From the IMG/VR virus record IMGVR_UViG_3300044677_000044, positions 33,019-97,018 of that record: a DNA stretch of 64,000 bases, one strand, 5' to 3'. This document shows, one piece after another, positions 3,463 to 26,059 of the stretch. Made by a program: the position numbers and the translations under genes. The stretch is from a virus. The notes beneath the pieces are model-generated. The model saw only the letters and a list, made by a program, of their open reading frames with translations, was not told where the DNA came from and did not search any database. Numbering within the stretch: position 1 is the first letter of the stretch; every line of letters starts with the position of its first letter.

Positions 3463-6400
3463 TCACTGCGCGTTGGCGGTACGCCGCACGGTCGTCAGCG
3501 CGCTGTCGACCTGGGTGTCGGCGACGCCGGCGACGTAGGCGTGCAGCGTCGGGCCGTCCTGGACGACCAGCGTCACCGCCTGCCCGGGCTGGAAGCCGCC
3601 TGCTGACGGGCCTGCAGCGAGGCGGGTGAGGGCGTTCGCCTGGTCGGTGGTGAACACCGGCTCCGGGGAGCCGGTGCCGTTGTAGGCCAGGTTCAGGCCG
3701 GGCTGGAGGTAGCCGCCCTTGTCGTACCAGTGGGGGGACCGGTCCGACCACTGCGACCAGGCATGCGACGGGGAGCCGTAGCGGCTGTGGATGTAGTCCA
3801 GCCCCCACGTGATCTGGGTGTGGGGGCTGGTTTTCCAGTCCGGGCCGGCGGCGGCCATCTTGGATGCGGGCAGCGACTGGGGGATGCCGTACGCGCCGCT
3901 GCTCTTGTTGAGGGCCTTGTAGTTCCAGCCCGATTCGCCGTTCCACAGCTTGATCAGGGCGGGCATCTCGTTGCCGCCCCAGCCCCACGCCTTGAGCATG
4001 TTGCGGGCCATGGCCTGTGCGGCTGCGGCGCCGGTGCCGTGAACACCGGCGTCCCCTCCCCCGCCGGCCTTCCCTCCGAGTCCGGTGAGGAGCTTCTTCA
4101 TGCCGCCGAGCGCGGCCACGGGCAGGGCCGCGGCCGCCTTCCCCCAGGGGCTGGACGTGAGCGGCTTGAGCTTGCCGAGAACGGGGTTGAGGATCTTCAC
4201 GAGGTTCCCGACCGGGTCGGCCAGGAAGTCCGCGGCGCTCTTGATGCCGCCCCAGGCCGCACCGGCGGCGTTCGACACGGCGCCGCCCGCGGCCTTCGCC
4301 GCGCCGCTGATGGTGCTGGTGATGTCGCCGAAGATGCCGCCGCCGGACAGGAGTTGCGCGCCGGCCTGCTGGAACAGGCCGAGCGCCCGGGTCCGGTACT
4401 TCGGGTCGGTGGGGATGACGTACTCGGGGTGACGGGGGTTGCCCTCGCCGACGATCGCGGTGGGCTTGCTGAACACCCCGGGCCGCATGGGCATCGGGCC
4501 GCCCTGCGCGAGAAGCGGGAGCTTCCCGAGCTTCGGCAGGCCGGGAATCCAGCCGCCGACCTTCTTCCACACGCTGAGGATCCCGTTGTTCCAGACGGTG
4601 TCGATCACGAAGTTGATCGGCTTCTTCGCCGCGTTCTCGATCTTGTCCCAGGTTTTGGCGATCCCGACACTCGTGCTGTCGAAGGCGCTGATGACCTTGT
4701 CGCTCAGGGTTCCCGCCCAGCCCGGGATGGTCTTCGTGAAGAACGTCCCGATCGGGTTGAGGACGTTCTTCTTCAGCCAGGACCAGCCGTCGGAGAAGAC
4801 GCTCTCGATGTTCCCCCAGTAGTGAGTGATCGCCCACACGGTCAGGCCGATCGGGCCGGTGATGATCCCGAGAACAAGCGGCCAGTTTCGGCTGATCCAT
4901 CCCATCAGCCACATGAAGGAGTTGGGGATCGTCTTCGTGAAAAACGGAATGAAGTCCTTCGTGAACCAGGTGACGACCGCCTGCACGGCGATCTGAATCC
5001 CGGCCCAGACTGCCTTCACCGAGTCACGGAACCACGCCCAGTGATTCCATGCCCAAAGGACAGCGGCGATCAGCAAGCCGATCGTGACGATGATGATCAG
5101 GATGATCGCGACGATCGGGTTCCCTGCGAAGGCTGCGTCCGCAGCCAGCGTGGCGGCAGTCCACCCGTCGGTGATCAGCGTGGTCAGCACCACAATCGCG
5201 TTGTAGACGAGGACCGCGCCGTTCCACGCCAGTTGCGCGAGCGTCGCCAGCTTCGTCACGACAAAGATCGCGTAGAGGAGTTGGATAACCCCCGGCGAAT
5301 TGGTGGCGATACTGCCGATGACATCGGCGACGGCTCCCAGTGCCTTCAGCACAGGGCCGGAAAGCGGAGCGGTCGCCTTCCCTACGTCTACAAAGGCGTC
5401 TCCGATCTTCCCGAGGGAGTCGGCGAGTTTCGGGGCCTCCTGCGACGCGTAGTCGAGGAAGTTCTCAAACTTCGGGCTGCCCTTGAGGTTCTTCCCGAAG
5501 TTCGCGAACTTTCCCGTGATCTTGTCCATCCGGGTGGAGATGGTGTTGATGTGCGGGAGGAAAGCGTCAATGATCCCCGCGGCCCCTACGAAGACGTTCC
5601 CGATCGCCGTGCCGACACCGACGATCGCCGGCTGGACCGATGACGCGAAGTCCTTCTTCAGGGACAGCCACCACGGGCTCTTGAAACCCTTACTGACCTT
5701 GTCCTGGAGGGTTTCGATGCCCTTCGCCGCACCGGTGACCAGAGGCGTCAACCCGGGCAGGCTGTTCTTCGCCCCGTCGATCCCGCGGGTGAAGATCGGC
5801 ATGATCTCCGGCTGCAAGTCCCGAGACCAGCCCTTGAACGCCGTCCGGAGATCGAGGAAAGCGTTGAAGGTGGCCCGCGAGCTCGGCGTCAGCTTGTCCA
5901 GGGCCTGCTGGTACTTCTGCGCCGCCGTGGCGCTCGCGTCCGAACCGCTCGCGGCCGACAGCGAGGCCGAAGCGACCTGCCGCTGCGCGCTCGCGATGGA
6001 GTCTGCGGCGTTCGCCTCAGCGTCGCTGACCTTCGCCTGCGCGTCCGCGATGGCCTGGGCGTTCTGCTGCTGTGTCCGTACCTGGGCTGCCTGCGCGTCC
6101 GACAGCGCCTGGGTGCGGTCGGTGACGTTGGCCTGGGCCTGGGCCACGGCGTCCTGGGCCTGCGTATAGGTCGCGCTGCCCTTGACGCCGGCCTTGTTCG
6201 CGGCCGTCGTCTGGTCCTGGAGACGCTTGGTCTGGATCTGCTGCTCGGACAGCGACTGAACGGCCGCGTCGTACGCCAGCTGATCCTGCGCAAGCTGCTC
6301 CGCGGTGACCTTCGCACCAGCGGCCTTGTCTGCGGTGAGCTGCTCCTGCGCGGACGTTACGGCGAGTGCCGCGCGCCGCTGCGCGAGGTCGGCGTCGACC

Positions 6401-7932
6401 AGCTGGTTGTTGAGGTCCTGGAGCTGGTCGGCCGCGGTCTTCCGCGCGGCCACCAGGTCCAACTGGGCCTGCTTCGCGGCCTTCTGCGCGTCGGCGAGGT
6501 CACCCTCGGCCTTCTCCACCGCGCTGTCGGCCTGCACCTGCTGCAGCGCGGCCTGCTGGATCGCGTTGCCCACGGCCTCTCTGGCCTGCTCGATCTCCCG
6601 GGCACCGCTGCGCACCGCGGAGGCAAGAGCCTGCTGAGCCCCGGCCATCTGCAGGGACTGCGAGGCTGCCTGAGCGGCGGCCTGGCCGCTCTTCGCCGTC
6701 GCGGTGGCTGCCGCGTTCTGGGCCTGCTTCTGTGCGTCGAGAGCGCCCTTGACGTCGCTGATCGCGGGAAGGGCAGCGGCGGCGAACGCGCCGACGCCGA
6801 CAGCGGCCGCGGTGAATCCTGCGACCAGGGACCCGGTGCCGGCCGCGAGGACCGGGATCGCCGGGAGCGCGATCAGGCCGGCGATGGCGATCGACACCTG
6901 GAAGATCGCCGACAGTGCCTCCCGGTTGGAGACGTGGAGGTTGATGTCCTTGCCGTCCAGGCCGTCCGCCGCGGCGTCGACCGCGGCGAGCTGCGCCAGC
7001 GCGGCGGCGGTGTCCGCGCGCACCGCGATGTTCGGGGACGACGCGCCGAGCGCAAGCAGCCGGGCGCGGATCTCATCGATCCTCGCCTGCGCGGTCGCCG
7101 CGTCGATGTCGACACCGATGCGCTCATCGGACAGCGCACCCAGCGACGCCCGCAAACGGGCCATCTCCAGTTCCGCGGGGGTGGTATCCACCCGGGCCTG
7201 GATGTTGACGTCCGGCAGGGACGCCTGAGCGCGCTGGACGGCCGCCCGCAGACGGGTAGCCCACGCACCGTCGGTCTCGACCTGGATGTTGACGGCGTTG
7301 GAGGAGACCCGCTCGATCTCCGCCCGGATGTCGGCCAGCGCGGCGCGCGCCGCCGCGGTGTCCGCACGCACCGCGACGTTCGGGTGCGCGGCACCGAGCC
7401 GGGTGAGCTGCGCCTCGATGTCGGCGACCTCGGCGTCGGCCCGGGTAACGTCGACGTCGATCCCGATCCGCTTGTTCGACAGGGTCTCCATGCGGGCGCG
7501 GAGCCGCGCGAGCTCCGCGTCCACACCGGTGTCGGCGAGGCTGACGTTCAGCTTGGGCATCGCCCGGAACGCCTCAACGAGCTTGGCCCGCAGGGTGCGG
7601 GCGAAGGCACCGCCGGCGTCGTCGCCCTGCTTGGACGCGGCGACCTTCGCCTGCTGGCCGCCGATGGTGATGCCCTGCTTGAGGGCGTCCTTCACCGCGT
7701 CCTTGATGCGGTTGGCGATCTCGGTGCCGATCTGCTGGCCGATCGACAGCCCGATGTTGCCGACGGCCCGCTGCATGGCGGGGCCGAACGCCTCACCGGC
7801 GGCCTTGCCCGCGTCTTCGCCGGCCTTCGTCGCGGCCGGCACGAGCGCGTCCCGGAGCCTCTGTTCGATCCCCGTGGTGTTGGGGACGATGTCGACTTCG
7901 ACGGATCCGACACTGATCGGCACGAGGGTCAC
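3463..7932 (-). CDS. Tape measure protein with C-terminal lytic transglycosylase (SLT-like) domain
   Basis: 1489 aa, Ala/Gln-rich helical repeats, hydrophobic middle, C-terminal LIKLWNGESGWNYKALNKSSGAYGIPQSLP...QITWGLDYIHSRYG lysozyme-like motif; follows the tail chaperones. Confidence 0.95.
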   Translation of the reverse strand: MTLVPISVGSVEVDIVPNTTGIEQRLRDALVPAATKAGEDAGKAAGEAFGPAMQRAVGNIGLSIGQQIGTEIANRIKDAVKDALKQGITIGGQQAKVAASKQGDDAGGAFARTLRAKLVEAFRAMPKLNVSLADTGVDAELARLRARMETLSNKRIGIDVDVTRADAEVADIEAQLTRLGAAHPNVAVRADTAAARAALADIRAEIERVSSNAVNIQVETDGAWATRLRAAVQRAQASLPDVNIQARVDTTPAELEMARLRASLGALSDERIGVDIDAATAQARIDEIRARLLALGASSPNIAVRADTAAALAQLAAVDAAADGLDGKDINLHVSNREALSAIFQVSIAIAGLIALPAIPVLAAGTGSLVAGFTAAAVGVGAFAAAALPAISDVKGALDAQKQAQNAAATATAKSGQAAAQAASQSLQMAGAQQALASAVRSGAREIEQAREAVGNAIQQAALQQVQADSAVEKAEGDLADAQKAAKQAQLDLVAARKTAADQLQDLNNQLVDADLAQRRAALAVTSAQEQLTADKAAGAKVTAEQLAQDQLAYDAAVQSLSEQQIQTKRLQDQTTAANKAGVKGSATYTQAQDAVAQAQANVTDRTQALSDAQAAQVRTQQQNAQAIADAQAKVSDAEANAADSIASAQRQVASASLSAASGSDASATAAQKYQQALDKLTPSSRATFNAFLDLRTAFKGWSRDLQPEIMPIFTRGIDGAKNSLPGLTPLVTGAAKGIETLQDKVSKGFKSPWWLSLKKDFASSVQPAIVGVGTAIGNVFVGAAGIIDAFLPHINTISTRMDKITGKFANFGKNLKGSPKFENFLDYASQEAPKLADSLGKIGDAFVDVGKATAPLSGPVLKALGAVADVIGSIATNSPGVIQLLYAIFVVTKLATLAQLAWNGAVLVYNAIVVLTTLITDGWTAATLAADAAFAGNPIVAIILIIIVTIGLLIAAVLWAWNHWAWFRDSVKAVWAGIQIAVQAVVTWFTKDFIPFFTKTIPNSFMWLMGWISRNWPLVLGIITGPIGLTVWAITHYWGNIESVFSDGWSWLKKNVLNPIGTFFTKTIPGWAGTLSDKVISAFDSTSVGIAKTWDKIENAAKKPINFVIDTVWNNGILSVWKKVGGWIPGLPKLGKLPLLAQGGPMPMRPGVFSKPTAIVGEGNPRHPEYVIPTDPKYRTRALGLFQQAGAQLLSGGGIFGDITSTISGAAKAAGGAVSNAAGAAWGGIKSAADFLADPVGNLVKILNPVLGKLKPLTSSPWGKAAAALPVAALGGMKKLLTGLGGKAGGGGDAGVHGTGAAAAQAMARNMLKAWGWGGNEMPALIKLWNGESGWNYKALNKSSGAYGIPQSLPASKMAAAGPDWKTSPHTQITWGLDYIHSRYGSPSHAWSQWSDRSPHWYDKGGYLQPGLNLAYNGTGSPEPVFTTDQANALTRLAAGPSAGGFQPGQAVTLVVQDGPTLHAYVAGVADTQVDSALTTVRRTANAQ

Positions 7933-8829: not shown

Positions 8830-9417
8830 TCAGGAGCCGGTGTAGGCGGGCGTGACCGGCACGAAGTCCGTGTGGTAGACGGTGATGTTCGCGTCGTCCG
8901 GGTACGCCGTGACGGTGATGCCGTAGCCGGACATAGTGTCCTGCTTGAACGTCACGTCGTCGCGGTCAGAGATCTCGCCCTGGGGGACGTAGAAGCCGCG
9001 GGCGGTGTCGCCATCGAAGACCACGAACCACCACGCCCGCCTGTCGGGGGTGGGGGCGGCCGTCTCGCCGAAGTTCGTCAGGCCGTCCTCGTCCGGCGCG
9101 AGGTCCGCCGCCGGGATGCGGTACATGATGCTCTGCACCTGCACCCGCGCGGTTTCCCACAGCGTCATCTTGAACGTACGGATGGACTTGGTGATCGTCG
9201 TACGGAACGGCGAGGTCAATCCCCACGGCGTGAACGCCTGGGAGTCCTCATCGAAGCCGTAGACCAGGCCGTCGTCGCTGGTCGCACCGAGGGGTGCGAA
9301 CGGCGGGAGGGGCTGCTCGAGCGGCGACGTGGGCCGCTCCGTTCCCAACGGGCCGACCCACCCCGCCCCGTTGCTTCCGATGACGGTCAGGTCCTGGGAC
9401 CTGTCGATCGTGACCAT
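8830..9417 (-). CDS. Major tail (tail tube) protein
   Basis: ATG 9417 with GGAGG RBS; LGATSDDGLV...TFKMTLWET...YGITVTAYPD is a typical actinophage tail tube; C-terminus ...PAYTGS. Confidence 0.92.
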   Translation of the reverse strand: MVTIDRSQDLTVIGSNGAGWVGPLGTERPTSPLEQPLPPFAPLGATSDDGLVYGFDEDSQAFTPWGLTSPFRTTITKSIRTFKMTLWETARVQVQSIMYRIPAADLAPDEDGLTNFGETAAPTPDRRAWWFVVFDGDTARGFYVPQGEISDRDDVTFKQDTMSGYGITVTAYPDDANITVYHTDFVPVTPAYTGS

Positions 9418-9498
9418 GCGCTGGCCTCCAGACATGCTGAGGCCCCGCACGGCGGGGCCAGGATGGGAAAGAGGGTCCGGCGCGGGCCCGCTTGGCGG

Positions 9499-9882
9499 TC
9501 AGGAGACCGGGTGGAAGAACACTTCGTAGGTGCCGCCGATCTTGCGCAGCGCCGGGTTTTCGTACGGCCGCCACATCGGGGCGCTGACGGTGGAGACCCG
9601 GCCGAACACCGCCTTGGCGGTCTTCACGCCCCGCAGCTTGATGACGAGGTCGTCACGGGCGGCGCGGGCCAGCGCGGACGCATCGGCGCGGGTCAGCGCG
9701 TAAGCGTCGACGTCGATCAGCGCCCGGTCCAGGCGGAACCCGTCGTCAGTGCCGCCGACGCGCTGCACCTGCAGGACCGGCAGGACATCGAGGAGATCCG
9801 CTGGAAGGTCCGTGCACACCCGCACCGTCCTGGTCCCCGTCAGGTAGGAGACCAGTTCGGCCTCCACATCGGGCCACTCCAT
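9499..9882 (-). CDS. Tail terminator protein
   Basis: WPDVEAELV...LPVLQVQRVGG...IDVDAYA pattern; position before tail tube. Confidence 0.85.
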   Translation of the reverse strand: MEWPDVEAELVSYLTGTRTVRVCTDLPADLLDVLPVLQVQRVGGTDDGFRLDRALIDVDAYALTRADASALARAARDDLVIKLRGVKTAKAVFGRVSTVSAPMWRPYENPALRKIGGTYEVFFHPVS

Positions 9883-10250: not shown

Positions 10251-10571
10251 GTGATCGACATCGAGACGGGCACCGGTAGCCGTGTGACCTTCGACGGGCG
10301 GTCGGTGACCATCGAGCGGCTGCGGGGCATCTCGAAGTCCGTGTTCGGTGAGCGGTCGACGGTCGTGCCGGTCGGTCAGATCGCCGCGGTGGAACTGGTG
10401 CAGCCGTCGTGGATGCGCGCCGGCCACATACGGTTCGCTGTGCCCGGGTCGCAGGCCGCCGCGGCCCGTACGGCGGCGAACCGGGATGAGCACGCGGTGC
10501 TGTTCAGCAAGAGCCAGGCCAAGGAGTTCGAGGTCCTGGCGGCCGCGGTGCGCGCGGTGATCAGCCGGTGA
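10251..10571 (+). CDS. DUF4429-like small protein, antisense to the structural operon
   Basis: GTG 10251: MIDIETGTGSRVTFDGRSVTIER...VVPVGQIAAVELVQPSWMRAGHIRFAVPG...DEHAVLF resembles DUF4429 (PH-like) proteins. Confidence 0.65.
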   Translation: MIDIETGTGSRVTFDGRSVTIERLRGISKSVFGERSTVVPVGQIAAVELVQPSWMRAGHIRFAVPGSQAAAARTAANRDEHAVLFSKSQAKEFEVLAAAVRAVISR

Positions 10572-10914
10572 CGTACTCCAGGCTGGCCTCGACCGGGCCG
10601 GTGCTTCCGGTGAACGGCGACTGGTAGTCGCCGCTGCGGCCGTACACGTTGTACAGGACCCCGTCGACGATGACCTGGTCGGTGGCCCGCAGGTCGGTGC
10701 CGGTGGGGGCGTACAGCTTCAGGCCGGAGGTGACGGTGTCCCGGGCGTCCACGACCTCGATAGGGCCTGCGGTCGCAGTGTTGTGGGGCTCCACGGCGCA
10801 GCCTGGGACCTGAATGTTCGTCGGGGCGCCGGGAACGTCGTTGCCGTAGTCGTCGCGGGCTGGCGCCCCCGGGCGGACGATGGTGATCGTCTTACCGTGT
10901 GGCAGGGCGCGCAC
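10561..10914 (-). CDS. Head-to-tail stopper
   Basis: TITIVRPG...DDYGNDV...LYAPTGTDLRATDQVIVDGVLYNVYG pattern. Confidence 0.88.
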   Translation of the reverse strand: MRALPHGKTITIVRPGAPARDDYGNDVPGAPTNIQVPGCAVEPHNTATAGPIEVVDARDTVTSGLKLYAPTGTDLRATDQVIVDGVLYNVYGRSGDYQSPFTGSTGPVEASLEYVTG

Positions 10915-11914
10915 CGGCCGCCACCTCCTCCACCGCCGTGCACCACTGCCCGAGTTCCGCGCCCGGGTCGAGTGTGTCGGCCCGGGTGGTGGCGAGTTTC
11001 GACGCCTGACCGTACGTGGCCGGGTCGTCGAGGTCTTCGATCGCGGCCTGCCACGACGGAAGGTCGGCCCGGTCGCAGAACACCCCAGCTTCGCCGAGGG
11101 ACTCGGCCAGGCCCGGTGTGGGGTGTGCGATCACGGGGATGCCGGAGCTCATGGCCTCCACGCCGACCCGGCCCCACGATTCGTACACCGACGGCATCAG
11201 CAGCAATCGGGTGCGGGCGTACACGTCCTCGCGCATGCGGCGCCCGTCGGTGTGCTCGATGACGGTGACGTTCGGGAGGTCCGGTGGCTCTTGCGGCCCG
11301 TGGCCGCCGATGACCGCGAGGAACCTGCGGTCCGGGTTGGCGCGGGCGAGCGCGGCGAAGACCCCGACGCCCTTGTCCCGGTTGCAGTTGATCAGGGTGA
11401 TGTGGTCGCCGCGGGTGGTGCGGTAGTCCGCGGCCCGCACCGGCGGCCGGACCACCAGCATCCGGCCCGGCCTGCGGGTCCGGCCGTGGAAGTGCTCCTC
11501 GGCTTCGCCACGCATCCACTGGGAGTTGACGACGGCGAGCGCCGTGGCACCGGTGACCAACGGCTTCCACGTCAGGTCGAACGTGTTGTGACAGACCACG
11601 ACCAGGGGCCGGCCGTAGCCGTGGGCGAGCGACGCGGTGACCTGCACCTCGTCCAGGTGACTGACCAGGACGTGCGCCCGGGCCGCGGCTGCGGGGAAGC
11701 GGCTCCCGGCGGCCGCCGGGATGACGTGCACACCGTCCAGGTCGTACGGCTCGCGGCGCCCCGGCGTCCACCGGGACAGCCACACCTGCACGGTGTGGCC
11801 GCGGCCGGCGAGCGCCCGGAGCATCTCGTGGAGCATCCACTCGGCGCCGGCGTTGTGGTCGGGCGGGTAGGCGTGGATCCGGGCCAGGACCCGCAGCACG
11901 GTGGTCATCGCCAC
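10892..11914 (-). CDS. Glycosyltransferase family 4 (GT-B), paralog B
   Basis: HAYPPDHNAGAEWMLHEM N-terminus; PSVYESWGRVGVEAMSSGIPVIAHPTPGLAE GT4 signature. Confidence 0.92.
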   Translation of the reverse strand: MAMTTVLRVLARIHAYPPDHNAGAEWMLHEMLRALAGRGHTVQVWLSRWTPGRREPYDLDGVHVIPAAAGSRFPAAAARAHVLVSHLDEVQVTASLAHGYGRPLVVVCHNTFDLTWKPLVTGATALAVVNSQWMRGEAEEHFHGRTRRPGRMLVVRPPVRAADYRTTRGDHITLINCNRDKGVGVFAALARANPDRRFLAVIGGHGPQEPPDLPNVTVIEHTDGRRMREDVYARTRLLLMPSVYESWGRVGVEAMSSGIPVIAHPTPGLAESLGEAGVFCDRADLPSWQAAIEDLDDPATYGQASKLATTRADTLDPGAELGQWCTAVEEVAAGARPATR

Positions 11915-12531
11915 CTCACCATCGACATGCCGCTAGTGGGCCGGTAGTCCTTCAGCGTGGCCTTGTCCGCGGCGGACATCGTCACGGCCGTGCCGACCCC
12001 GGAGCCGTCGGTGCGGTAGCTATACGGGCCGATCGTCTCGCCGGTGACACCGCCCGCGAGGGTGGGCGCGGTCAGGGTCCGCAGGACCATCGCGGCGACC
12101 ACCGCCACCACATCTTCGGGGACCGCGGCGTCCCCGTAGCTGTAGACGACCCGGTAGGTGCCTGGGTACGCCTCCGCGTCGTCCTCGTACCACTGCTCGG
12201 GGAGGTTGATGACGGGGGTGGCCACGGCGGTCCGGATGATGTCCAGGCCGTCCCACTCCCAGCCCACCACGGGCAGATCGGGTGCACCCCCGGCGCCGAT
12301 CGCCACCACCGAGGTGACGTCCCGGACCGGCTTCTGCGGCAGGCGGATCTCGCCCTGCTGCGCGCGCAGCACGACCGCCTCGTTGTCGGTGCGTGCGAAG
12401 CTCTGCTTGGTGTAGCCGCGTACGAGCGCGGACGCGTCGGCCAGCAGGAACCCTGCGCGGTCGGTTTCAGCGGGGGTCAGGGGCCGGCCGAGCCGGCCTT
12501 CCAGGTCGTCGGTGCTAGCGAGGGGATCCAC
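11905..12531 (-). CDS. Head-to-tail adaptor
   Basis: MDPLASTDDLEGRLGRPL...LLADASALVR...ETIGPYSY pattern; position after capsid. Confidence 0.88.
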   Translation of the reverse strand: MDPLASTDDLEGRLGRPLTPAETDRAGFLLADASALVRGYTKQSFARTDNEAVVLRAQQGEIRLPQKPVRDVTSVVAIGAGGAPDLPVVGWEWDGLDIIRTAVATPVINLPEQWYEDDAEAYPGTYRVVYSYGDAAVPEDVVAVVAAMVLRTLTAPTLAGGVTGETIGPYSYRTDGSGVGTAVTMSAADKATLKDYRPTSGMSMVRWR

Positions 12532-13528
12532 GGCGGCTCACCCCCTCCATGACGGTGGCCCACTGGTCAAGCTCCGCGCCCGGATCGAGCGCGGCCGCCC
12601 GGGCGGTCGCGGCCTTCGACGCCTTCTTGTACGCGGCGGCCCCGGACAGGTGCTTGATCGCGGCCTGCCAGGCCTCGATGTCGTCGCGGTCGCAGAACGT
12701 CCCCGCGTCGCCGCAGGACTCCAGCAGCCCCGGCGTGGGGTGGGCGAGCACGGGGATCCCGGAGCACATCGCCTCGACCGCGACCCGGCCGTACGACTCG
12801 TACACCGATGGCGCGAGGAGGAACCGGGTGCGGGCGTACACGTCCTTCGCCATGCGGTCCCCCGCGGTGTGGGGCACGATCTCCACGTTCGGAAGGTCCT
12901 CACGGACGATCTGGTGCCCGTAGCCGCCGACGACACCGAGGAACCGGCGTTGCGGCATCCGCTCGGCCAGCGCGTAGAAGACCCTGGCGCCTTTCTCCTC
13001 GGTCAGGTTGATCAGCGTGATGTGGTCGCCCGGGGTGGTCTGGTAGTCGGGCACGGCGACCGGCGGGTGCACCGTGATACCCCGCGGCATCGGCCTGTCC
13101 CCACGGTTGCGGCGCCACCACTGCTCAGCGTCGGCCGCCATCCACACGGTGTTGTAGACCGCGAGCGACGGGGTGCCCTTGGCCAGCCACGACTTGGACT
13201 TCTCGAAGGTGTTGTGGAGGAGGTGCACGACCGGGATGTGGTTCATCTCCCCCAGGATCGAGGCCCGCGGGGTGTTCTCCAGGTGCGTGACGATGACCTG
13301 CGCCCGGTGCTCCCCGCGCATCCACGGGCCTGGGTCGGCCTTCCCCCGGAACGGGTAGACGTGGACGCCGTCGATGTCGTACCGGTCCGTGGTGTCCCCG
13401 CGCTGGGACAGCAGGACATCGACGTTGTGCCCACCGGCGGCGAGGTGCCGCAGCAGGCTGTGGGCGGCCCACTCGGCGCCGGCGTTGTGGGCCGGCGGGT
13501 AGGCGTGCAGCATCGCCAGGACGCGCAA
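12515..13528 (-). CDS. Glycosyltransferase family 4 (GT-B), paralog A
   Basis: Likely TTG start at 13528 (GGAG RBS); HAYPPAHNAGAEW; PSVYESYGRVAVEAMCSGIPVLAHPTPGLLE GT4 signature. Confidence 0.92.
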   Translation of the reverse strand: MRVLAMLHAYPPAHNAGAEWAAHSLLRHLAAGGHNVDVLLSQRGDTTDRYDIDGVHVYPFRGKADPGPWMRGEHRAQVIVTHLENTPRASILGEMNHIPVVHLLHNTFEKSKSWLAKGTPSLAVYNTVWMAADAEQWWRRNRGDRPMPRGITVHPPVAVPDYQTTPGDHITLINLTEEKGARVFYALAERMPQRRFLGVVGGYGHQIVREDLPNVEIVPHTAGDRMAKDVYARTRFLLAPSVYESYGRVAVEAMCSGIPVLAHPTPGLLESCGDAGTFCDRDDIEAWQAAIKHLSGAAAYKKASKAATARAAALDPGAELDQWATVMEGVSRRGSPR

Positions 13529-13589: not shown

Positions 13590-14540
13590 TCAGGACGCGG
13601 CGGTGGTCGCCTGAACGACACCGAACGGCGAGCGGGTCGTCGCGTCGGTGTTGAGGCGGGTCGCCGGGTTGGCCGTGGCGAACGCCGCGCGCATCACGAC
13701 ACGCATCGCGACGGAGTCCTGCTGCATCAGGTTGAGGATGACCCGACCGTCGTCGTCGGAGATCACACCCTCCGTGAACAGCTTCCAGGAGATGTCCTGC
13801 CGGGTGCCGACGATCGCCTTGGACCAGTCGCCCATCAGCAGTTCGGCCTCGGACATGTCCCAGGCGCCGTTGCTGAGTTCGGCCATCGGGTAGCCGTACA
13901 GGTTGCCGCCCGGGGACCCGTTCATGTTCGGCTGGAAGATCGGGATGCCCTGCTCGGAGCGCATACCGGTGAGCTTCCAGTTCAGGCCCGGGCGGGCCAC
14001 GAACCCGTTCACGCCGAAGCCGTCCCGGGTGACGAGCTCGGCGACGGTGGAGACGTCCTGCCCGAAGTCGGTGCCGGCGCCCGAGATGACCGCGTTGCCG
14101 GCGCCGACCGCGGACTGGTAGACGGGCGTCGGCCAGGTGCTCGGCTTGTTCGTGCCGAACAGGGCCGCGCCGTCCAGGAGCGCGCCGATCGCCTCGGTGA
14201 GGCGGGGCCGCACCTGGTCCCAGATCGGGATCTGAGCGTCGTCCAGGTAGGACTCGGGGATGGGGACGATCGCCGCCATCTCCTCGACGATCAGGTCGAC
14301 GTTCTTCCAGTCCTGCGCGCTGGTCTGCTTCAGGCCGGTGTCGCCGCCGACGAAGTACGCGATCGGCATGACGTCCAGGACGGGCTGCCGCTGCGTCTTG
14401 GACGACATCGGCACCTTGCGGGCGAGCTGGAGGATCGCCGACTGCGACGGAAGCTCCTGGATGATCTCTGCGCTCACCGGCTCGGGCACCAGCGGGTCGT
14501 TGCTGGCGTCTCGGCTGATGATGCTGTTGTACGTGGCCAC
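13590..14540 (-). CDS. Major capsid protein (HK97 fold)
   Basis: DPLVPEPVSAEIIQELP...YFVGGDTGLKQTS...EEMAAIVPIPE...NLMQQDSVAMRVVMR; C-terminus ...QATTAAS. Confidence 0.96.
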   Translation of the reverse strand: MATYNSIISRDASNDPLVPEPVSAEIIQELPSQSAILQLARKVPMSSKTQRQPVLDVMPIAYFVGGDTGLKQTSAQDWKNVDLIVEEMAAIVPIPESYLDDAQIPIWDQVRPRLTEAIGALLDGAALFGTNKPSTWPTPVYQSAVGAGNAVISGAGTDFGQDVSTVAELVTRDGFGVNGFVARPGLNWKLTGMRSEQGIPIFQPNMNGSPGGNLYGYPMAELSNGAWDMSEAELLMGDWSKAIVGTRQDISWKLFTEGVISDDDGRVILNLMQQDSVAMRVVMRAAFATANPATRLNTDATTRSPFGVVQATTAAS

Positions 14541-15796: not shown

Positions 15797-16591
15797 TCAC
15801 CTCCCTCCGGTGTCTCGGGGCGGCGCCACGTATCCGGTGCGGCCCTCGGCTTCCCACCAGCGGCGGAACGCGTTGACGGCGTTCCTTCCGCCGGTTCCTT
15901 TGGTCTCGCGGACCCAGTCCTCGTACAGCTTCGCGGCTAGGCCGACGAAGTCCTCGGAGAGGGTGAATGCCGGCCATGCCTGGCAGGCGCACAGGTCGTG
16001 GTAGCGGTTGCCGCCTTGCCGGGGGTCACCGGCGCTCTGCGCGGACTTGTAGACCGGGCCGCGGGACGCGAGCATCGCGCACCAGGCGCACGGGTCTTCA
16101 TCGGTGACCCGCGACCATCCAGTGGCCCGCTCATCCCGCTCAGTCGAGTCCTGCAGGACCTGCCGGCCGCCTTCGAGCGCCAGGTACGACGCGGACCCCG
16201 ACAGGCGAACCGCCGCGGAGTCCATCGCCTGCTGCGGGGTCTTGCCCGCCGCGATGGCCTTCTTGAACTCCACCGGGCCGGCGACGTCCAGGGCCGTCAG
16301 CAGCCGTTCGATGTCGAGGTCCTCCGCCGGGGAGGGGAGGAACGCGTCGTCGGGGATGTCGGCGGCCCGCCGGGCTTCCATGTACGCGCTGTCGGCGAGC
16401 TGCGCGGACTCCAGGCGGGCCTGCTGTACTGCGGGCACCATCAGGGCGCGCAGTGTGGGCCACGACGCGTCGACGTTCGCGGGGTTGAGGAGGTCGCGCC
16501 AGGCCCGCACGAGTTGCTGGATCAGCCGGGCCTGGATCAGGGCCTGCCGGCGCCGGTACGCCATCGCCAGGCGGGCGCTGATCGACGCCAC
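15797..16591 (-). CDS. MuF-like minor capsid / head morphogenesis protein
   Basis: GWSRVTDEDPCAWCAMLASRGPVY...YHDLCAC Cys/His motif; follows portal. Confidence 0.85.
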   Translation of the reverse strand: MASISARLAMAYRRRQALIQARLIQQLVRAWRDLLNPANVDASWPTLRALMVPAVQQARLESAQLADSAYMEARRAADIPDDAFLPSPAEDLDIERLLTALDVAGPVEFKKAIAAGKTPQQAMDSAAVRLSGSASYLALEGGRQVLQDSTERDERATGWSRVTDEDPCAWCAMLASRGPVYKSAQSAGDPRQGGNRYHDLCACQAWPAFTLSEDFVGLAAKLYEDWVRETKGTGGRNAVNAFRRWWEAEGRTGYVAPPRDTGGR

Positions 16592-16592
16592 G

Positions 16593-18008
16593 TCAGGCCG
16601 CGTCCGGGAGCGTCAGGTTCGGGCTGGGGGGCGGTGTGGCGTCCTTGGGCGGCGTCATCTGCTTCTCGATGATCCCGTCGAGGCGGTGCATCGCATCGCC
16701 CTGCTCAGCGGTCTTCTTCCACCGCACTACGTCGGTCTGCGTGATGCCGGGGATCTTCTCCCACAGTTCCTGCGGGGGCACACCGAGCATCGTGACGAGT
16801 TTGCCGAGGGCGTCGACGGTCTGCGCGAGCGACCGCGCGGAGGTGTCGCGCCACACGACCTGCGCGGAGGTGTCCTCCCACGCCTCCTTGTCTCCGGACG
16901 CGTGGCCGACCAGGCGCAGCAGTTGCTCGTGGGACTCGCCGCACAGCGACTCGCGTTCGTCGATTTTCCGGTCCAGGCCGTCGCGGGCGGCGGCCAGGGC
17001 CTCCGCGGAGAGGTTCACCAGCGCGCCGAGCAGGTGGTAGGGCGGGACCTGGCTCATGGTCGCGATGTGCCGGATGGTGTCCTCGCGGGACTTCAGGTAC
17101 CCGGTGAGGTCGGTCTGCCCGAACTCCCCGAACTTCGTGTCGGCGTCCTCGCCAACGAACAGGCCGTCGACCCGGGACCGGAAAGGCTCGATCGGGTTGC
17201 CCTTGCTGTCCTGCGGCGGTGCCATGCCGGTGACCCAGCGCTGCCGGAATGCGGCGTACTGCTGCGCCATCAGCAGGTTGAACGTGGTCATGTTCAGCTG
17301 GTCCTGGGTGGTGATCAGCGGCTCGACCTCGCCGAGCACGCCGTCGCCGTCCAGGTCCTGGGTGTTGACGTACCGCACGACCGGGCACACCCCGAGCCCG
17401 TGCTCCATCACCGCGTTCCGGCTTTCCATGGTGAGTTCGGACCCGTCCGGCTTCCCGGTCATCGAGTAGCGGGCCTGGTCGTCGTAGACGCGCACCACCC
17501 GGCGCTTGCCCGTCCGGGTGTTCTGCAGGCTGTCCTCGATCGCGAAGATCGGCCACTCATCATTGACTGGGTCCGCGTACACCGCGGTCATCCGCCGCGG
17601 CGAGAACGGGGTAATCACCGGCAGTGGCTTGCCCGGCAGGACCACCGCATAGGCCGCGCCATAGCTGAGGACCGCACGGTGGATGCCGTGCTGCCGGGCA
17701 TCCATCCGGTTGGCCTGCCACGCCTTCCACGGCGCCGCGTTGTCGTCCTGCTTCGCCTGCCGGTACCCGTCGACGTACATGTTCTGCGCGACGACCGTGA
17801 CAACCAGCGGCAGGATGTTGACCTTCGCCCGCTCGATCAGCCAGTGGTACTCAGCCTGCGCCCCCTTAGGTACGTACACCGAGGCGTGCTTCCCGCACAG
17901 GTAGTCAGCGATCCGCTGGAGCCGCGCCTGCTCATCCTTGCGGACCGCCAGCAGCCGCTTGCCCGTCGCCACCGCCTCATTGGGAGTCATCAGGGGCATG
18001 CCGGACAC
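16593..18008 (-). CDS. Portal protein (SPP1 gp6-like)
   Basis: 471 aa after TerL; QQYAAFRQRWVTG, NLSAEALAAA and ELWEKIPG motifs of actinophage portals (start may be ATG 17999). Confidence 0.93.
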   Translation of the reverse strand: MSGMPLMTPNEAVATGKRLLAVRKDEQARLQRIADYLCGKHASVYVPKGAQAEYHWLIERAKVNILPLVVTVVAQNMYVDGYRQAKQDDNAAPWKAWQANRMDARQHGIHRAVLSYGAAYAVVLPGKPLPVITPFSPRRMTAVYADPVNDEWPIFAIEDSLQNTRTGKRRVVRVYDDQARYSMTGKPDGSELTMESRNAVMEHGLGVCPVVRYVNTQDLDGDGVLGEVEPLITTQDQLNMTTFNLLMAQQYAAFRQRWVTGMAPPQDSKGNPIEPFRSRVDGLFVGEDADTKFGEFGQTDLTGYLKSREDTIRHIATMSQVPPYHLLGALVNLSAEALAAARDGLDRKIDERESLCGESHEQLLRLVGHASGDKEAWEDTSAQVVWRDTSARSLAQTVDALGKLVTMLGVPPQELWEKIPGITQTDVVRWKKTAEQGDAMHRLDGIIEKQMTPPKDATPPPSPNLTLPDAA

Positions 18009-18018: not shown

Positions 18019-19668
18019 TCATCTGAAGCCGTGTACGCGCCCGGTGCGGGCCTTCTTCTTCTGCTGTTTGGCCCACTCCGGGGACGCCAGCAGCGTCCGC
18101 CGGGCCATGTCCGCGAGCTGCGTTGCGGCGAACCCGTCGACCTTCTTCGGTGACTCCCGTGACTCCTTGCCGAACGACACGCCCCATCGGTTCGGGCGGC
18201 GCCGCGCGTTCCCGGCGTGCCGGTTGAGGATCGGGTGGTTTGTGTGCGGGACCTGGCCGTCGACGATCCCCTGCACCAGTGCCTCGGTGGCCTTGGTCAG
18301 TTCCTGCTGGTGGCCGCGCATGTCGTAGCCGATCAGCGCCTTCGGGGACGCCTTCGCCAGCAGCTTTTCGCGGTACCTCTCCGACCAGGTGTCAATGTAG
18401 GACTCCCACAGCTTCACGTCCGCGAAGAACGCCCTCACCTGGTACTGGCCGAAGGTGTTCTCGACCAGGTCGTCGACCTGCATCCGGTCGACCTCCCAGC
18501 CCTGGCCGCGCGGGCCCTCAGGGCGCTCCCAGATCCCGATCGGCTGCACGAGCCGGTCCACGAGCCGCATTGCGATCAGCGCGGTCGCGTCGTCGCTCTT
18601 GCCGCCGTCGAAGCCGAGGACGATGTCCTCGCCGGGCTGGAGCCGCATCTCCGAGGCGTTCTTCGCCCACTCCGCAGGGTCCAGGAGCGCGTCCTCCGCG
18701 GCGACCGGCTGGTTCAGCCAGTACCGGCGGGAGTCCGACGGCGCGGACTGCGGGTCCCAGATCTCCGCGACGATCCCGTCCAGATCCATCCACTCTGCGG
18801 CCGGCCCGTACGCCTCCCGCAGCCCCGCGAGGAGTTCGTCCCGGTCGGCCAGGTCGGTGCCGTCCTTGGCCTGCCGGTGGTCGAACAGCAGCCCAGCGGC
18901 CTCGGGGTCACGGATCCGGCCCTCACGAATCGCCTTGAAGTACGTGTGGGTGGCCTCAGCGACCGAGTCCTGACCGGGCTCGTACATGGTGCTGGTCTCC
19001 AGCGCCCACGGCTCGGCCTCCTTGCGCTTGCGGAGGTTCCGGCGCACCGTCTTGTGCATCTCCCGCAGTTCACGGGTGACGTATAGGTGCGTCTCGTCGA
19101 AGACCGCGAAGGTCTCCTTACCGCCGTCCTTCGCCGACGATGATGCGGTCGACGGGGTGATCTCACCACGCTGATGGTGCAGCACGATCCGGCTCGATGA
19201 CGCTGCGGACTTCCCGATGTCGATCCCCGGGAAGTCGTCGGCGGAGTTCTCTACGACGTACTCGAGCATCGTCGAGACGTTGTCGTAGGTGTTCCCGCTC
19301 TGCCCTTCCTCCGTGGCCAGGCATCGGATGAACGGCGACTTCACCGGTCGGCCGACCGGCTCACCGCTGGCGTCCCACCCGGCGAACCGCACCGGGAACA
19401 GCGCCTCGGAGCAGACCAGCATCCCCGCGAGCTCCGACTTCGCCCGGCCCTTCGACCTCGACAAGAACCCGCGCCGGTACACCCGGCGCCCGGTATCCGG
19501 GTTGAGCCGGTATGCCTTGACGACGAACGCGTAGAACTCGTCATCGAGCTCGATCGGCTCGCCGATGACGTCGCCCGGGCCGTGGCACAGGTACGCCTCG
19601 ATGTGCTCCACGATCTGAGGGCCCAGCGACGGGAACTCCCCCTCGTAGTCCGCACCACGCCAGGGCAT
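18019..19668 (-). CDS. terL: Terminase large subunit
   Basis: Walker A-like SRSKGRAKSE, Walker B FAVFDETH, nuclease motifs LGFDGGKSDD and KVDGFAA. Confidence 0.96.
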   Translation of the reverse strand: MPWRGADYEGEFPSLGPQIVEHIEAYLCHGPGDVIGEPIELDDEFYAFVVKAYRLNPDTGRRVYRRGFLSRSKGRAKSELAGMLVCSEALFPVRFAGWDASGEPVGRPVKSPFIRCLATEEGQSGNTYDNVSTMLEYVVENSADDFPGIDIGKSAASSSRIVLHHQRGEITPSTASSSAKDGGKETFAVFDETHLYVTRELREMHKTVRRNLRKRKEAEPWALETSTMYEPGQDSVAEATHTYFKAIREGRIRDPEAAGLLFDHRQAKDGTDLADRDELLAGLREAYGPAAEWMDLDGIVAEIWDPQSAPSDSRRYWLNQPVAAEDALLDPAEWAKNASEMRLQPGEDIVLGFDGGKSDDATALIAMRLVDRLVQPIGIWERPEGPRGQGWEVDRMQVDDLVENTFGQYQVRAFFADVKLWESYIDTWSERYREKLLAKASPKALIGYDMRGHQQELTKATEALVQGIVDGQVPHTNHPILNRHAGNARRRPNRWGVSFGKESRESPKKVDGFAATQLADMARRTLLASPEWAKQQKKKARTGRVHGFR

Positions 19669-22948: not shown

Positions 22949-23632
22949 TCAGGCGGTCTGGTGGGTGTGCTCGTTGATGAGGGCGCGGATCGCGTCGGGG
23001 TTGCCGGTGGCGTCGACGTAGCGCTGCATGCGCTGGCCTCCGGCGATGTGCTGGGGTGATCCGAGGCCGGATTCGAGGGGGTGCCACAGGTGGGTGATCG
23101 TGCCGGGGTGCTTGGCGGCGGGGCCGAGGAGGGCGTCAGCGGCGGTGCGGAACGCGGTGTCTTCGAAGCCCCAGCCGGTGAACGCCTCGTCCATGCCGCC
23201 CGCCGCCCACCAGGCGGATGGTTGGATGACGAGGACGCCGCCGGTGGCCCATTCGTGGGCCCAGTCGCTCGGGCAGTCGTCGGCGGGCTGCCCTGCAAGG
23301 TAGGCGGCGGTGCCGGCCTGTGACAGGCCGCGGTACCAGGTGTACGGCAGGTGCAGCACGCCGTCGGTGGCGTCCGCGATCGCGGCGTGGAGGGGCTCGG
23401 CCTGGGGCAGGGTGTCGGCGTCGCAGATGACGACGATGTCGGCGCCGGCGGCCTGGGCTTGCCGTACGCCTTCGTTGCGGCTGCCGGCCCGGCTGAACGG
23501 CTCGTGGGCGCTGTCGACATCGAGGTGCAGCGCGTCGGGCAGCAGCGCTGTCAGGTGGGTGCGGACGGTCTCGTGGTGGGCGTTGCGCTCGGGTGTGCCG
23601 GGCCGCCAGGGGATGACGGCGGCGACGGTCAC
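22949..23632 (-). CDS. GT-A glycosyltransferase (GT2/GT7 galactosyltransferase-like)
   Basis: GTG 23632; VIPWR, FSRAGSRNEG, DxD motif CDAD, GGMDEAFTGWGFED (Glyco_transf_7C-like), HLWH. Confidence 0.9.
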   Translation of the reverse strand: MTVAAVIPWRPGTPERNAHHETVRTHLTALLPDALHLDVDSAHEPFSRAGSRNEGVRQAQAAGADIVVICDADTLPQAEPLHAAIADATDGVLHLPYTWYRGLSQAGTAAYLAGQPADDCPSDWAHEWATGGVLVIQPSAWWAAGGMDEAFTGWGFEDTAFRTAADALLGPAAKHPGTITHLWHPLESGLGSPQHIAGGQRMQRYVDATGNPDAIRALINEHTHQTA

Positions 23633-24222
23633 AGGGCCCGCCACAGGCTCCAGGGCCGGTCGTGGTTGTCGAGGCGTTCCATCTTGAGCCGGCCAGCGAG
23701 GTCGTTCTGGCGTTGGCGGTCCCAGGTGGTGACGTCGAGCCAGGCGGCGCCTTCGGCGGGGTCGTCGGAGGTGGGCCAGTCCAGGGCGAGGGTGCCGCCC
23801 TTCTTGACGATGCCGCGCAGGGCGGTGACGAGGTGCTCGCTGGTGGCGTAGTCGTGGTGGATGAGCACGGCGAGGCACACGGCGGCGTCGACTTTGCGGC
23901 GGCCGAAGTGGTCGGTGAAGTTGTCGCCGGTGGACTGGAACGCGGTCAGGTCTGGGTCGTTGGCGGTGAGGGCGGTGAGCATGTGCTCGGAGGCGTCGGC
24001 GCCGGTCACGTCGTAGCCCAGGGCGCGCAGGGCGATGGAGATGCGGCCGTCGCCGCATCCGAAGTCGAGGACCCGGGCGCCGGCGGGGATGTCGGCGGCG
24101 AGGAGGTCGGCTTGTGCGCGGCCGGATGCCCAGTAGGCGTCTTCGGAGATGCCGCGGGTGGGGTGGATGGAGCCGGCGGCTTCGGGCCGGTCCCAGGCGG
24201 CGATGACGTCGGCGGCGATCAT
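23629..24222 (-). CDS. Class I SAM-dependent methyltransferase
   Basis: ATG 24222; RVLDFGCGDGRI, VTGADASEHML, AVLIH motifs. Confidence 0.9.
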   Translation of the reverse strand: MIAADVIAAWDRPEAAGSIHPTRGISEDAYWASGRAQADLLAADIPAGARVLDFGCGDGRISIALRALGYDVTGADASEHMLTALTANDPDLTAFQSTGDNFTDHFGRRKVDAAVCLAVLIHHDYATSEHLVTALRGIVKKGGTLALDWPTSDDPAEGAAWLDVTTWDRQRQNDLAGRLKMERLDNHDRPWSLWRAL

Positions 24223-24809
24223 GCTCGGCTCTCCACTTCGTGCTCGGCGAGCCAGCGCCGTACTGCCTGGTTCTGGTACGCGTCGTTGAGGGCGTTGTGG
24301 AGCCCGGTTTCCTGCTGGGGGAGGTCGGCGTCGGTGAGGCCGAGGCGCTCGATCTCTTGGCGCAGGTCGTGGGTCCACATCGGGACGCCGTCGGGCAGGC
24401 GCATCATCGTTCCCCAGAGTTGGCACAGGGCGACGTGGTCGTAGGCGCCGTAGTCCGCCCACAGTTGGGGCTCGGGGGTGGCTTGGATGAAGTCCCGGAC
24501 CTCGTTGGCGATGACCCAGTGGGGCTTCACTCGGCTGTCGGCCTTGTCGGGGCCGACCATGGATAGTCCCGGCCGCGGGTAGTGGTTCGGGTGGTTGGCC
24601 ACGTAGGTGTCGAGCGTCGTCTTGCCCCTCATGGGCAGGGACGGCAGGACGTTGCGGACGAGCCAGTCGTTCGCCTTGATCCGTTCCCAGTCGGCGTCGC
24701 TGTTGACGGCGTAGTAGGAGCGGCCGTCGTCGGCGGCCATGCCGATCGAGATGATGTCGATCGTGCTGCCGTCCTCCAGGAACTCCAGGTCGTAGTCGAT
24801 GCCCGTCAC
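24219..24809 (-). CDS. DEDD 3'-5' exoribonuclease (Rv2179c/DUF5051-like)
   Basis: IDYDLEF, LWADYGAYDHVALCQLWG, HNALNDA motifs. Confidence 0.85.
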   Translation of the reverse strand: MTGIDYDLEFLEDGSTIDIISIGMAADDGRSYYAVNSDADWERIKANDWLVRNVLPSLPMRGKTTLDTYVANHPNHYPRPGLSMVGPDKADSRVKPHWVIANEVRDFIQATPEPQLWADYGAYDHVALCQLWGTMMRLPDGVPMWTHDLRQEIERLGLTDADLPQQETGLHNALNDAYQNQAVRRWLAEHEVESRA

Positions 24810-26059
24810 ATCTTCCTCCCGACTCGGATGGTGGTGACGCCGGGTTGGTCGGGCATGTAGCCGTGCGGGTCGATGACGACCGATCCGGGGGCGACCGCGA
24901 GGGTGCGGTGGTGTTCGTGGCGGGTGGCGATGACGTAGACGCGGGGCACGTGGGGAAGGTCGAACTCGCCGTCGACGTGGATGTCCTTGTGGTCGACCTC
25001 AAGGCCTCGCTCGCGGAGCTGGTGGGCGAGGAGGAGTGCGGGGCTGCCACCGGTGAGGTCGGAGCCGGGTTTGTACGCCTTGCCGAGGATGGTGATGCCG
25101 AGGCCGGTCTGCTGGGCCCACTGCTCGGTGAGGTCGGCGAGCCATCCGGACTGGGCTTCGCGGGCGCGGGCCATGTAGCCGAGGACGTCGGTGGACAGGT
25201 CGAGGCGCTGTGCGAGCCAGGACATGGCGATGAGGTCTCGGGGGTGGCAGTGGCCGCCGTCGCCCATGCCGCCGCGCATGTATTTCGGGGAGATGACGCG
25301 GTCGGTGGCTGCGGCGAGGGCGTCGGTGACGGCGTCGCAGTCGGCTCCGGTCTTGTGGCAGATCTCCATGAGCGCGTTGGCGATGACGATCTTTGTGGAG
25401 ATGACGACGTTGTACGCGACTTTCGCGAGCTCCGCGGACTCGATGCCCATGACCTGTGCGGGGCGGTCGTGGAGGGTGCGGTGGATGTCCATCACGGGCC
25501 GGGTGTGGGTGGGGTGGTCGGCGCCGAGGAGGACGAACTCGGGGTTGAGGTAGTCGGCGACGGTGGTTCCCATCGCGATGAACGCGGGGGTGTAGACCAG
25601 CGTCGTGAACTGGTTCAGCAGGGGCCGGATGAGGCGGTTCATCGTGCCGGGCAGGCACGTGGAGACCACGGCGACCGTGATGGGCTTGGCCTGCTGGTAG
25701 GCGGCCCGGCACACGTCACGGACGGCTTGGACGAGGAACTGGTACTCGAAGTCCCGCGGTTCGGCCGGCATGGGCTGCTCGCCGCCGTACTCGGGGCTGT
25801 GCGGGGTCTGCACGGCGACGAACACCACGCCGTCGGTTGCCGCGACCGCCCCGGCTGGGGTGGAGGCGAGTTCGAGGTTGGAGCCGGCGAGGAGCGCTTC
25901 GATGCCGTCTTCCTGCGGGGGTGGTGCCTGGCCGCAGAGGATCTCGTTGGGGCGGGTTGAGGGGTCGTAGCCGACGATGTGGTGCCCGCCGTGCTTCTCC
26001 TGGACCAGGGCGCACACGAGGCCGAGTTTGCCGAGGCCGACCCATCCGATGGTGCTCAC
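24806..26059 (-). CDS. UDP-glucose/GDP-mannose dehydrogenase family protein
   Basis: GTG 26059; Rossmann GWVGLGKLG, AVQTP, AELAKVAYN (catalytic Lys), GGMGDGGHCHPRD (catalytic Cys), ILGKAYKPGSD. Confidence 0.93.
   Translation of the reverse strand: MSTIGWVGLGKLGLVCALVQEKHGGHHIVGYDPSTRPNEILCGQAPPPQEDGIEALLAGSNLELASTPAGAVAATDGVVFVAVQTPHSPEYGGEQPMPAEPRDFEYQFLVQAVRDVCRAAYQQAKPITVAVVSTCLPGTMNRLIRPLLNQFTTLVYTPAFIAMGTTVADYLNPEFVLLGADHPTHTRPVMDIHRTLHDRPAQVMGIESAELAKVAYNVVISTKIVIANALMEICHKTGADCDAVTDALAAATDRVISPKYMRGGMGDGGHCHPRDLIAMSWLAQRLDLSTDVLGYMARAREAQSGWLADLTEQWAQQTGLGITILGKAYKPGSDLTGGSPALLLAHQLRERGLEVDHKDIHVDGEFDLPHVPRVYVIATRHEHHRTLAVAPGSVVIDPHGYMPDQPGVTTIRVGRKM

Follow-up and report, generated by a model that had tools for sequence, protein, structure and literature searches.

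Paired GT4-type glycosyltransferases in the head-neck module of a Streptomyces phage are predicted to glycosylate Ser-ending tails of the capsid and tail tube

A 64,000-nucleotide stretch of IMG/VR virus record IMGVR_UViG_3300044677_000044 (positions 33,019 to 97,018 of that 98-kb record, G+C ~70%; hereafter, the window) encodes a siphovirus structural module in which two paralogous glycosyltransferase (GT) genes, GT_A and GT_B, are interleaved with genes for head and neck proteins. Our analyses indicate that these two enzymes probably O-glycosylate the C-terminal tails of the major capsid protein and the major tail (tube) protein, both of which end in Ser. Open reading frame (ORF), Pfam and PHROGs assignments show the module to be a long minus-strand block of the window, in which the order capsid, GT_A, Ad1 adaptor, GT_B, Hc1 stopper is the one that had been proposed from the sequence alone (the sequence-only reading). 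The genes on which the argument turns are the following.

13590 to 14540, minus strand: major capsid protein, HK97 type, 316 amino acids (PF05065, E 3e-25; phrog_10, E 2e-44)
12515 to 13528, minus strand: GT_A, the position-1 predicted GT-B/GT4 enzyme, 337 amino acids from a TTG at 13528 (Glyco_trans_1_4, Glycos_transf_1 and Glyco_transf_4 above cut-off; phrog_26352, E 2e-108)
11905 to 12531, minus strand: Ad1 head-tail adaptor, 208 amino acids (phrog_137, phrog_442, phrog_2377)
10892 to 11914, minus strand: GT_B, the position-2 predicted GT-B/GT4 enzyme, 340 amino acids (Pfam GT1/GT4 families; phrog_26352, E 3e-128)
10561 to 10914, minus strand: Hc1 head closure protein (stopper), 117 amino acids (phrog_501, E 1e-18)
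8830 to 9450, minus strand: major tail (tube) protein (PF25681, E 1e-16; phrog_117, E 1e-37)

The proposed acceptors are the C-termini of the first and last of these proteins. The window capsid ends in ...PFGVVQATTAAS (last residues ...QATTAAS, followed by the stop codon), and the tail tube in ...VPVTPAYTGS. In several dissimilar lineages, capsids and tail tubes encoded beside a GT of this family carry a short, uncharged tail of Ser, Thr, Gly and Ala with a terminal Ser: tails of a second capsid type read ...ATAGAS or ...TPSGS, and those of phages with low G+C content ...AQGSA or ...AQGSGS, and ...GTVASS. Relatives that have no GT end otherwise (ReT1v-2 in ...PDTTP, Muddy in ...GEGEGESE and Neferthena in ...GTPVGH). 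When distinct tails were counted among 80 capsid homologues (57-87% identity), terminal Ser was found in 20 of 23 GT-linked tails versus four of 18 GT-less ones (Fisher p ~7e-5, a value inflated by shared ancestry), and charged residues made up 3% of the last eight positions in the former versus 38% in the latter. A comparison of proteins within the same prophages gave a similar picture, with terminal Ser in 78% of capsids (a further 13% end in Thr) and 96% of tail tubes, and in 0% of portal, Hc1 and gp10-like proteins, 0-2% of GTs, 5% of proteases, 11% of adaptors, 15% of large terminases, 30% of scaffold-like ORFs (n=10) and 50% of tail terminators. From these patterns we infer that the capsid and tail-tube tails are the likely acceptors.

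Half of the distinct C-termini of the tail terminator (window positions 9499-9882, with homologues in loci L136-L215) end in Ser, within the motif ...HPVS, and this protein may be a third acceptor or the ending may be a coincidence. The GT-less capsids of L112-L135, which are 57-60% identical to that of the window, have extensions rich in Lys, Arg and Glu (e.g., ...GRSTK and ...ARKSE). In Muddy (L043, genes 9 and 15), an acidic repeat of Gly and Glu closes both the capsid (...GGGSGEGEGESE) and the major tail protein (...GGGGEGEGEGE); these tails, of a different kind on the same two proteins, may be a tag for another modification or for an interaction.

GT_A and GT_B are 53% identical over 338 amino acids, that is, over their full length (E 1e-108). 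Both contain the two motifs that the sequence-only reading had quoted (HAYPPxHNAGAEW and the motif beginning PSVYES), and its description of a paralogous GT4 pair inside the head-neck module agrees with the Pfam GT1/GT4 and phrog_26352 matches that the two proteins share. Specifically, both score above the gathering cut-offs of PF13692, PF00534 and PF13439, and both match phrog_26352, a profile labelled "unknown function" in PHROGs, over its full length (~330 of 346 positions). A profile search of the PDB matched MshA at E 2e-13. An AlphaFold2 model of GT_B (pLDDT, the predicted local distance difference test score, 93; pTM, the predicted template modeling score, 0.91) was used as a Foldseek query and retrieved the retaining GT4 enzymes MshA, BshA, PimA, GlgA (glycogen synthase) and PglA at template modeling (TM) scores of 0.7-0.8 and E values down to 1e-15. 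In an alignment of 30 family sequences, the E-x7-E, KG and HN motifs and an N-terminal HxYPPxxNAGAE (GAE) loop are invariant, as are the individual residues E245, E253, K181-G182, T266, G268 and E271 (GT_B numbering), all of which both paralogs keep. A match to PF20706 (GT4-conflict) also scores above cut-off, with only ~60 of 385 profile positions aligned, around the E-x7-E region, and appears to be generic GT4 similarity. Modeled fold, motif and profile agree in identifying GT_A and GT_B as predicted GT-B-fold, GT4-type glycosyltransferases, and both look catalytically competent. With the enzymes retrieved by Foldseek they share the two-Rossmann GT-B fold, the E-x7-E motif and a nucleotide-sugar-binding C-domain. 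They differ in sequence (15-22% identity), in length (~340 amino acids versus ~360-440) and in acceptor, which is inositol phosphate, malate, a lipid or a glucan for the known enzymes and, as we propose, a protein C-terminus for the phage GTs.

To our knowledge, glycosylation of phage virions has been demonstrated so far only in a few mycobacteriophages, in which it blunts antibody recognition. The genes concerned are reportedly gp108-110 of Che8 and gp35-38 of Corndog, the subjects of the work on mycobacteriophage virion glycosylation by Freeman et al. 2023 (Cell Host Microbe 31:1216). Papers that cite Freeman 2023 (PMC12619734, PMC11600133, PMC12363180) place the glycans at the C-termini of the Che8 and Corndog capsid and tail tube subunits. 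These subunits have the same kind of ending as those of the window, a tail of small residues with a terminal Ser (capsid ...NKTGS and tail tube ...YSDGS in Che8; capsid ...PLVGS and tail tube ...IKGDS in Corndog). The systems are also alike in that the GTs are co-expressed with structural genes, those of Corndog lying inside the structural module, and in that methyltransferases accompany the GTs; moreover, the window gene at 22949-23632 is homologous to gp37 and gp109. The core enzymes are different. In Che8 and Corndog they are gp108 (GT2 plus methyltransferase), gp109 (GT2-like), and gp110 and gp38 (both GT25), GT2 and GT25 being GT-A-fold families, whereas here they are predicted GT-B/GT4 enzymes in a phage with a Streptomyces host. 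The window is further distinguished by a GT4 gene that immediately follows the capsid gene and has a second copy on the other side of the adaptor gene. Glycosylation is an experimental finding in Che8 and Corndog, whereas the window phage is known from its sequence alone. The window system appears to follow the substrate logic of Che8 and Corndog, but its core enzymes belong to another class, its GT genes occupy a distinctive position, and it is widely distributed among Streptomyces prophages.

TurkishDelight, whose host is S. scabiei RL-34, is the only isolated phage in our collection with a member of the GT family (gp20, annotated "glycosyltransferase"; 38-40% identity). Its 678-amino-acid gp20 consists of two fused GT copies and is encoded between capsid and tail genes. 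Like the window, TurkishDelight has two GT copies and a capsid (...SPGSTS) and tail tube (...FCVAS) that end in Ser; in contrast to the window, its copies are fused rather than flanking the adaptor gene, and its 575-amino-acid capsid and its tail proteins were not matched by the window capsid and tail-tube queries. The two halves of the fusion have long branches, and their placement in the tree relative to the window duplication is unstable. A literature search returned nothing on TurkishDelight or on GT4 enzymes in Streptomyces phage structural modules.

The arrangement in the window is widespread and not a one-off insertion. We examined 38 viral contigs that carry a relative and 80 actinomycete genomes (one per species). 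The order capsid-GT-adaptor-GT-Hc1 occurs in nine of the 38 contigs, and the two-GT order in 11 of the 80 genomes (41 two-GT loci overall). In another 38 of the 80 genomes, the second capsid type is followed by one GT only. Examples of the two-GT order lie in the chromosome of S. antimycoticus (CP108856.1) and in S. sparsogenes ATCC 25498. In many of the other viral contigs, one GT gene comes immediately after the capsid gene; some of these contigs have capsids only 26-29% identical to that of the window. Low-GC phages (39-46% G+C) have a GT between capsid and adaptor. The hosts in the 80-genome set comprise at least 65 Streptomyces species as well as Kitasatospora, Embleya, Actinomadura, Nonomuraea, Kutzneria and others.

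In a tree of the family, the position-2 copies form one branch (98/98) and the position-1 copies group together in 94% of bootstrap trees. Each copy therefore appears to have kept its own slot since one old duplication. In GT-B enzymes, the N-domain forms the acceptor side and the C-domain the donor side. At the 41 two-GT loci, identity between paralogs is 41% in the N-domain versus 59% in the C-domain, and the N-domain also holds 10 of the 11 conserved positions that are specific to one of the two groups. This suggests that the paralogs use similar donors and different acceptors, for example a protein Ser versus the first sugar, or two different sites, and sequential or distinct sugar additions fit a divergence concentrated in the N-domain. 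The alternative offered in the sequence-only reading, one enzyme per substrate (head versus tail), is disfavored: single-GT phages of either type have both a Ser-tailed capsid and a Ser-tailed tail tube, so one enzyme appears to be enough for both substrates, which argues against an obligate head-tail split. For the same reason, an attempt to assign the paralogs to substrates by their tails was uninformative.

The junctions between the genes bear on how the enzymes might be produced. GT_A overlaps the adaptor gene by 17 nt, the adaptor gene overlaps GT_B by 10 nt, and GT_B overlaps Hc1 by 23 nt, so that each GT does overlap the next gene as had been noted. The sequence-only reading went on to suggest that the enzymes are made stoichiometrically with head proteins and act during assembly or are packaged in the virion. 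Virion proteins are the most plausible targets; stoichiometric synthesis, however, finds no support, since the capsid stop and the likely TTG start of GT_A (13528, with GGAG 6 nt upstream) are separated by a 61-nt gap without overlap, and start/stop overlaps do not set stoichiometry. Such overlaps are the norm in late operons. Nor is there support for the assumption that the head-tail region normally tolerates no insertions. The structural module of Corndog includes three GT genes and a methyltransferase gene, small additional ORFs separate the capsid and adaptor genes in GT-less relatives, and the slot after the capsid gene holds a GT in dozens of phage lineages. The identical DNA reported for the two GT genes is a 22-nt stretch that is real but unremarkable.

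11837 to 11858: 22-nt identical stretch in GT_B, encoding HNAGAEW
13469 to 13490: second copy of the 22-nt stretch, in GT_A

Codon bias acting on these seven conserved residues explains it, and gene conversion as its origin was rejected on that ground: the genome is rich in G+C at third codon positions (GC3), and 72% of the residues identical between GT_A and GT_B have identical codons. The two genes share another identical 22-nt run, and their overall DNA identity is 66%; together with the codon bias, these values mean that the 22-mer is not evidence of gene conversion.

The window also contains a block of accessory genes with predicted roles in glycan synthesis, located upstream of the terminase gene on the same strand and in the same late gene block; the sequence-only reading of the GT pair does not mention them.

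22949 to 23632, minus strand: GT-A-fold GT, homologue of Corndog gp37 and Che8 gp109 (BLASTP E 1.6e-13 and 2.8e-9; Glyco_transf_7C, 24.9 bits, cut-off 23)
23629 to 24222, minus strand: class I S-adenosylmethionine (SAM) methyltransferase, exact start not fixed (Methyltransf_23/25/11, E 3e-12 to 4e-10, enclosing ORF)
24806 to 26056, minus strand: member of the UDP-glucose/GDP-mannose dehydrogenase family, start approximate (PF00984, E 8e-20; PF03721, E 1e-12; PF03720)
26056 to 26850, minus strand: second class I SAM methyltransferase, start approximate (Methyltransf_12/23, E 5e-14 and 4e-13)
26847 to 27503, minus strand: GT2-like (GT-A) glycosyltransferase, 218 amino acids (PF00535 at E 0.008 in a six-frame search; no Pfam match at E 0.01)

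Of the 485 homologues of the GT2-like protein, those with informative names are mostly called "glycosyltransferase family 2 protein [Streptomyces...]", and some have precomputed PF00535 matches. The block also includes an ORF for an Rv2179c-like 3'-5' exoribonuclease (24219-24809, GC3 0.92) between the first methyltransferase and the sugar dehydrogenase.

No gp37-like GT, GT2 enzyme or dehydrogenase was found in four complete relatives, one two-GT4 provirus and three single-GT4 phages, with the window record serving as positive control, and no other GT was detectable in the complete single-GT4 relatives. The capsid-adjacent GT4 module therefore appears to be autonomous and, if the virion is its target, the GT4 must prime the protein. 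We infer on these grounds, and from the sequences only, that the enzyme priming the glycan is a GT4.

Our proposed explanation is that GT_A and GT_B are cytoplasmic, nucleotide-sugar-dependent enzymes, expressed with the late structural genes, that would place an O-glycan on the Ser-ending tails of the capsid (...QATTAAS) and tail tube (...PAYTGS) to yield a sugar-coated virion. The family GT4, as the only recognizable GT in complete single-GT relatives, would start the glycan on the protein, and the second paralog would act on another acceptor (the first sugar rather than a protein Ser) or at another site with a similar donor. In the window phage, the glycan would probably be elaborated further by the gp37/gp109-like GT-A enzyme, the GT2-like enzyme, the dehydrogenase, which could provide a uronic acid donor, and the two methyltransferases.

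Several observations weigh against this explanation. The association between tails and GTs is partly non-independent phylogenetically, since the GT-less capsids sampled form a more distant group. The L020-23 capsids end in ...VAELT and that of L024 lacks a tail; in L091, the capsid is Ser-tailed but no GT follows within 4.5 kb downstream; some GT-less phages end in Ser or Thr (the Hammy capsid, and tail tubes ending in ...YFS or ...YFT); and the most distant GT relatives (30-34% identity) have no Ser-tailed capsids. GT_A and GT_B have no BLASTP similarity to the Che8 and Corndog enzymes, and a six-frame PF01755 search of the whole record at E 0.1 found none of the GT25 gp110/gp38-type enzymes described as essential in Che8 and Corndog. 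The argument from paralog divergence is weakened in that the N-domains of GT-B enzymes generally evolve faster than their C-domains. In addition, 26 genomes carry a branch of the family that is chromosomal and not phage-borne, so family membership by itself is no proof of a virion target. Finally, the glycan on the virion is predicted here from genes and sequences.

Alternatively, the GT4s could modify the host envelope late in infection (a cell-wall glycopolymer, a lipid-linked precursor or the phage receptor), blocking superinfection or the sticking of progeny to debris. Alteration of host surface glycans by phage GTs is well known (Markine-Goriaynoff 2004, as cited in PMC10955285), the nearest solved folds (MshA, BshA, PimA, PglA and WaaG) use small-molecule or lipid-linked acceptors, and the neighbors of the chromosomal branch are ordinary host genes. 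However, GTs for surface conversion are typically morons located close to immunity or integration genes and are often membrane-associated, whereas GT_A and GT_B are of soluble type and interleaved with overlapping head and neck genes, and an envelope target leaves unexplained both the co-variation of Ser tails with the GT and the match to the tails of proven glycosylated proteins. We therefore regard this alternative as unlikely. Quite unlikely, in our view, is that the substrates are other phage or host proteins, such as minor tail or receptor-binding proteins, the tail terminator or an upstream Pro/Thr-rich protein: half of the tail terminators in these prophages do end in Ser (...HPVS), but across dissimilar phage lineages the strongest and most general correlates of the GT are the adjacent upstream capsid gene and the capsid and tail-tube tails, and the single-GT relatives do not have the accessory block. 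Glycosylation of phage DNA to evade restriction, as by the T4 alpha- and beta-glucosyltransferases, which share the GT-B fold, is most improbable even though phage DNA glycosylation is common (Pyle 2024, as cited in PMC12619734) and the record carries DNA methylases and a nucleoside deoxyribosyltransferase-like domain, given that the record has no PF00303 thymidylate-synthase-family hydroxymethylase for 5-hydroxymethylcytosine or 5-hydroxymethyluracil, that head and neck genes, not replication genes, surround the GTs, which stay in the structural block in the relatives examined, and that the three single-GT records searched have no other glycan gene among those tested.

Glycosylation of the capsid and tail-tube tails can be taken one step further, to a generalization that we offer tentatively and consider possible rather than likely. 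A short uncharged tail with a free Ser at its C-terminus might be a portable "glyco-tag" that is read by different enzyme classes, GT-A in mycobacteriophages and GT-B/GT4 in Streptomyces and low-GC phages; the GT4 might then be a previously unrecognized protein-priming O-glycosyltransferase that recognizes protein C-termini, with the second paralog having arisen for a two-step or two-site glycan. If tail glycosylation is correct, virion glycosylation would extend to a large set of phages and prophages of Streptomyces and other actinomycetes, and probably to low-GC phages, and would rest on a different enzyme class, one still of "unknown function" in PHROGs. A short tail together with one ~340-amino-acid enzyme would be a compact pair with which phage surface glycans could be studied or engineered, and phages with one, two or fused GTs would provide a natural series for determining what the duplication added.

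The chromosomal branch of the family comprises 26 Streptomyces and Kitasatospora chromosomes (L180-L209), with proteins of 363-405 amino acids at ~48-50% identity (e.g., L184 6836-8053, L187 6899-8056 and L209 6938-8029). In these chromosomes, ordinary host genes surround the GT gene and its neighbor, which encodes a conserved protein of 440-640 amino acids (an NHL beta-propeller in L209); the two may form a cellular protein-glycosylation pair, or the branch may be the source of the phage gene.

Viral contig L093 has ~1.5 kb inserted between the capsid gene and the GT. In distant low-GC relatives, that position is occupied by a class I methyltransferase (L038 4751-5305), an arrangement that echoes the methyltransferase-plus-GT clusters of Corndog and the window. 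In low-GC contigs L025-L033, a 208-amino-acid protein (e.g., L027 5384-6010) is encoded between the capsid and the GT4. It is not a counterpart of Ad1, which would put the GT in slot 2, as it has no similarity to the window adaptor and the adaptor gene lies downstream of the GT. Comparison with Corndog gp38 and Che8 gp110 gave BLAST E values of 1e-5 and 0.004, and hhalign gave E 8e-4 at 24% probability; the protein has no Pfam match, and the similarity around an "EDD" motif is weak. Its identification as a GT25 enzyme like gp38 and gp110 is weakly supported, and we keep it as a lead only: if the similarity is real, the low-GC phages might pair a GT of the proven virion type with the GT4 family.

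The remaining structural genes of the window are as follows.

18019 to 19668, minus strand: large terminase
16593 to 18008, minus strand: SPP1-type portal
15797 to 16591, minus strand: VG15/protease-like protein
between the VG15/protease-like protein and the capsid, minus strand: scaffold-like ORF
between Hc1 and the tail terminator, minus strand: gp10-like protein
9499 to 9882, minus strand: tail terminator
3463 to 7932, minus strand: tape measure

A Pfam census of the record, itself incomplete, turned up no integrase family. Other genes of the record encode two WhiB regulators, two HIT-domain proteins, a Tad3-type Thoeris inhibitor, a DUF5131 protein, a GH25 lysin, a beta-helix tail protein and DNA methylases.

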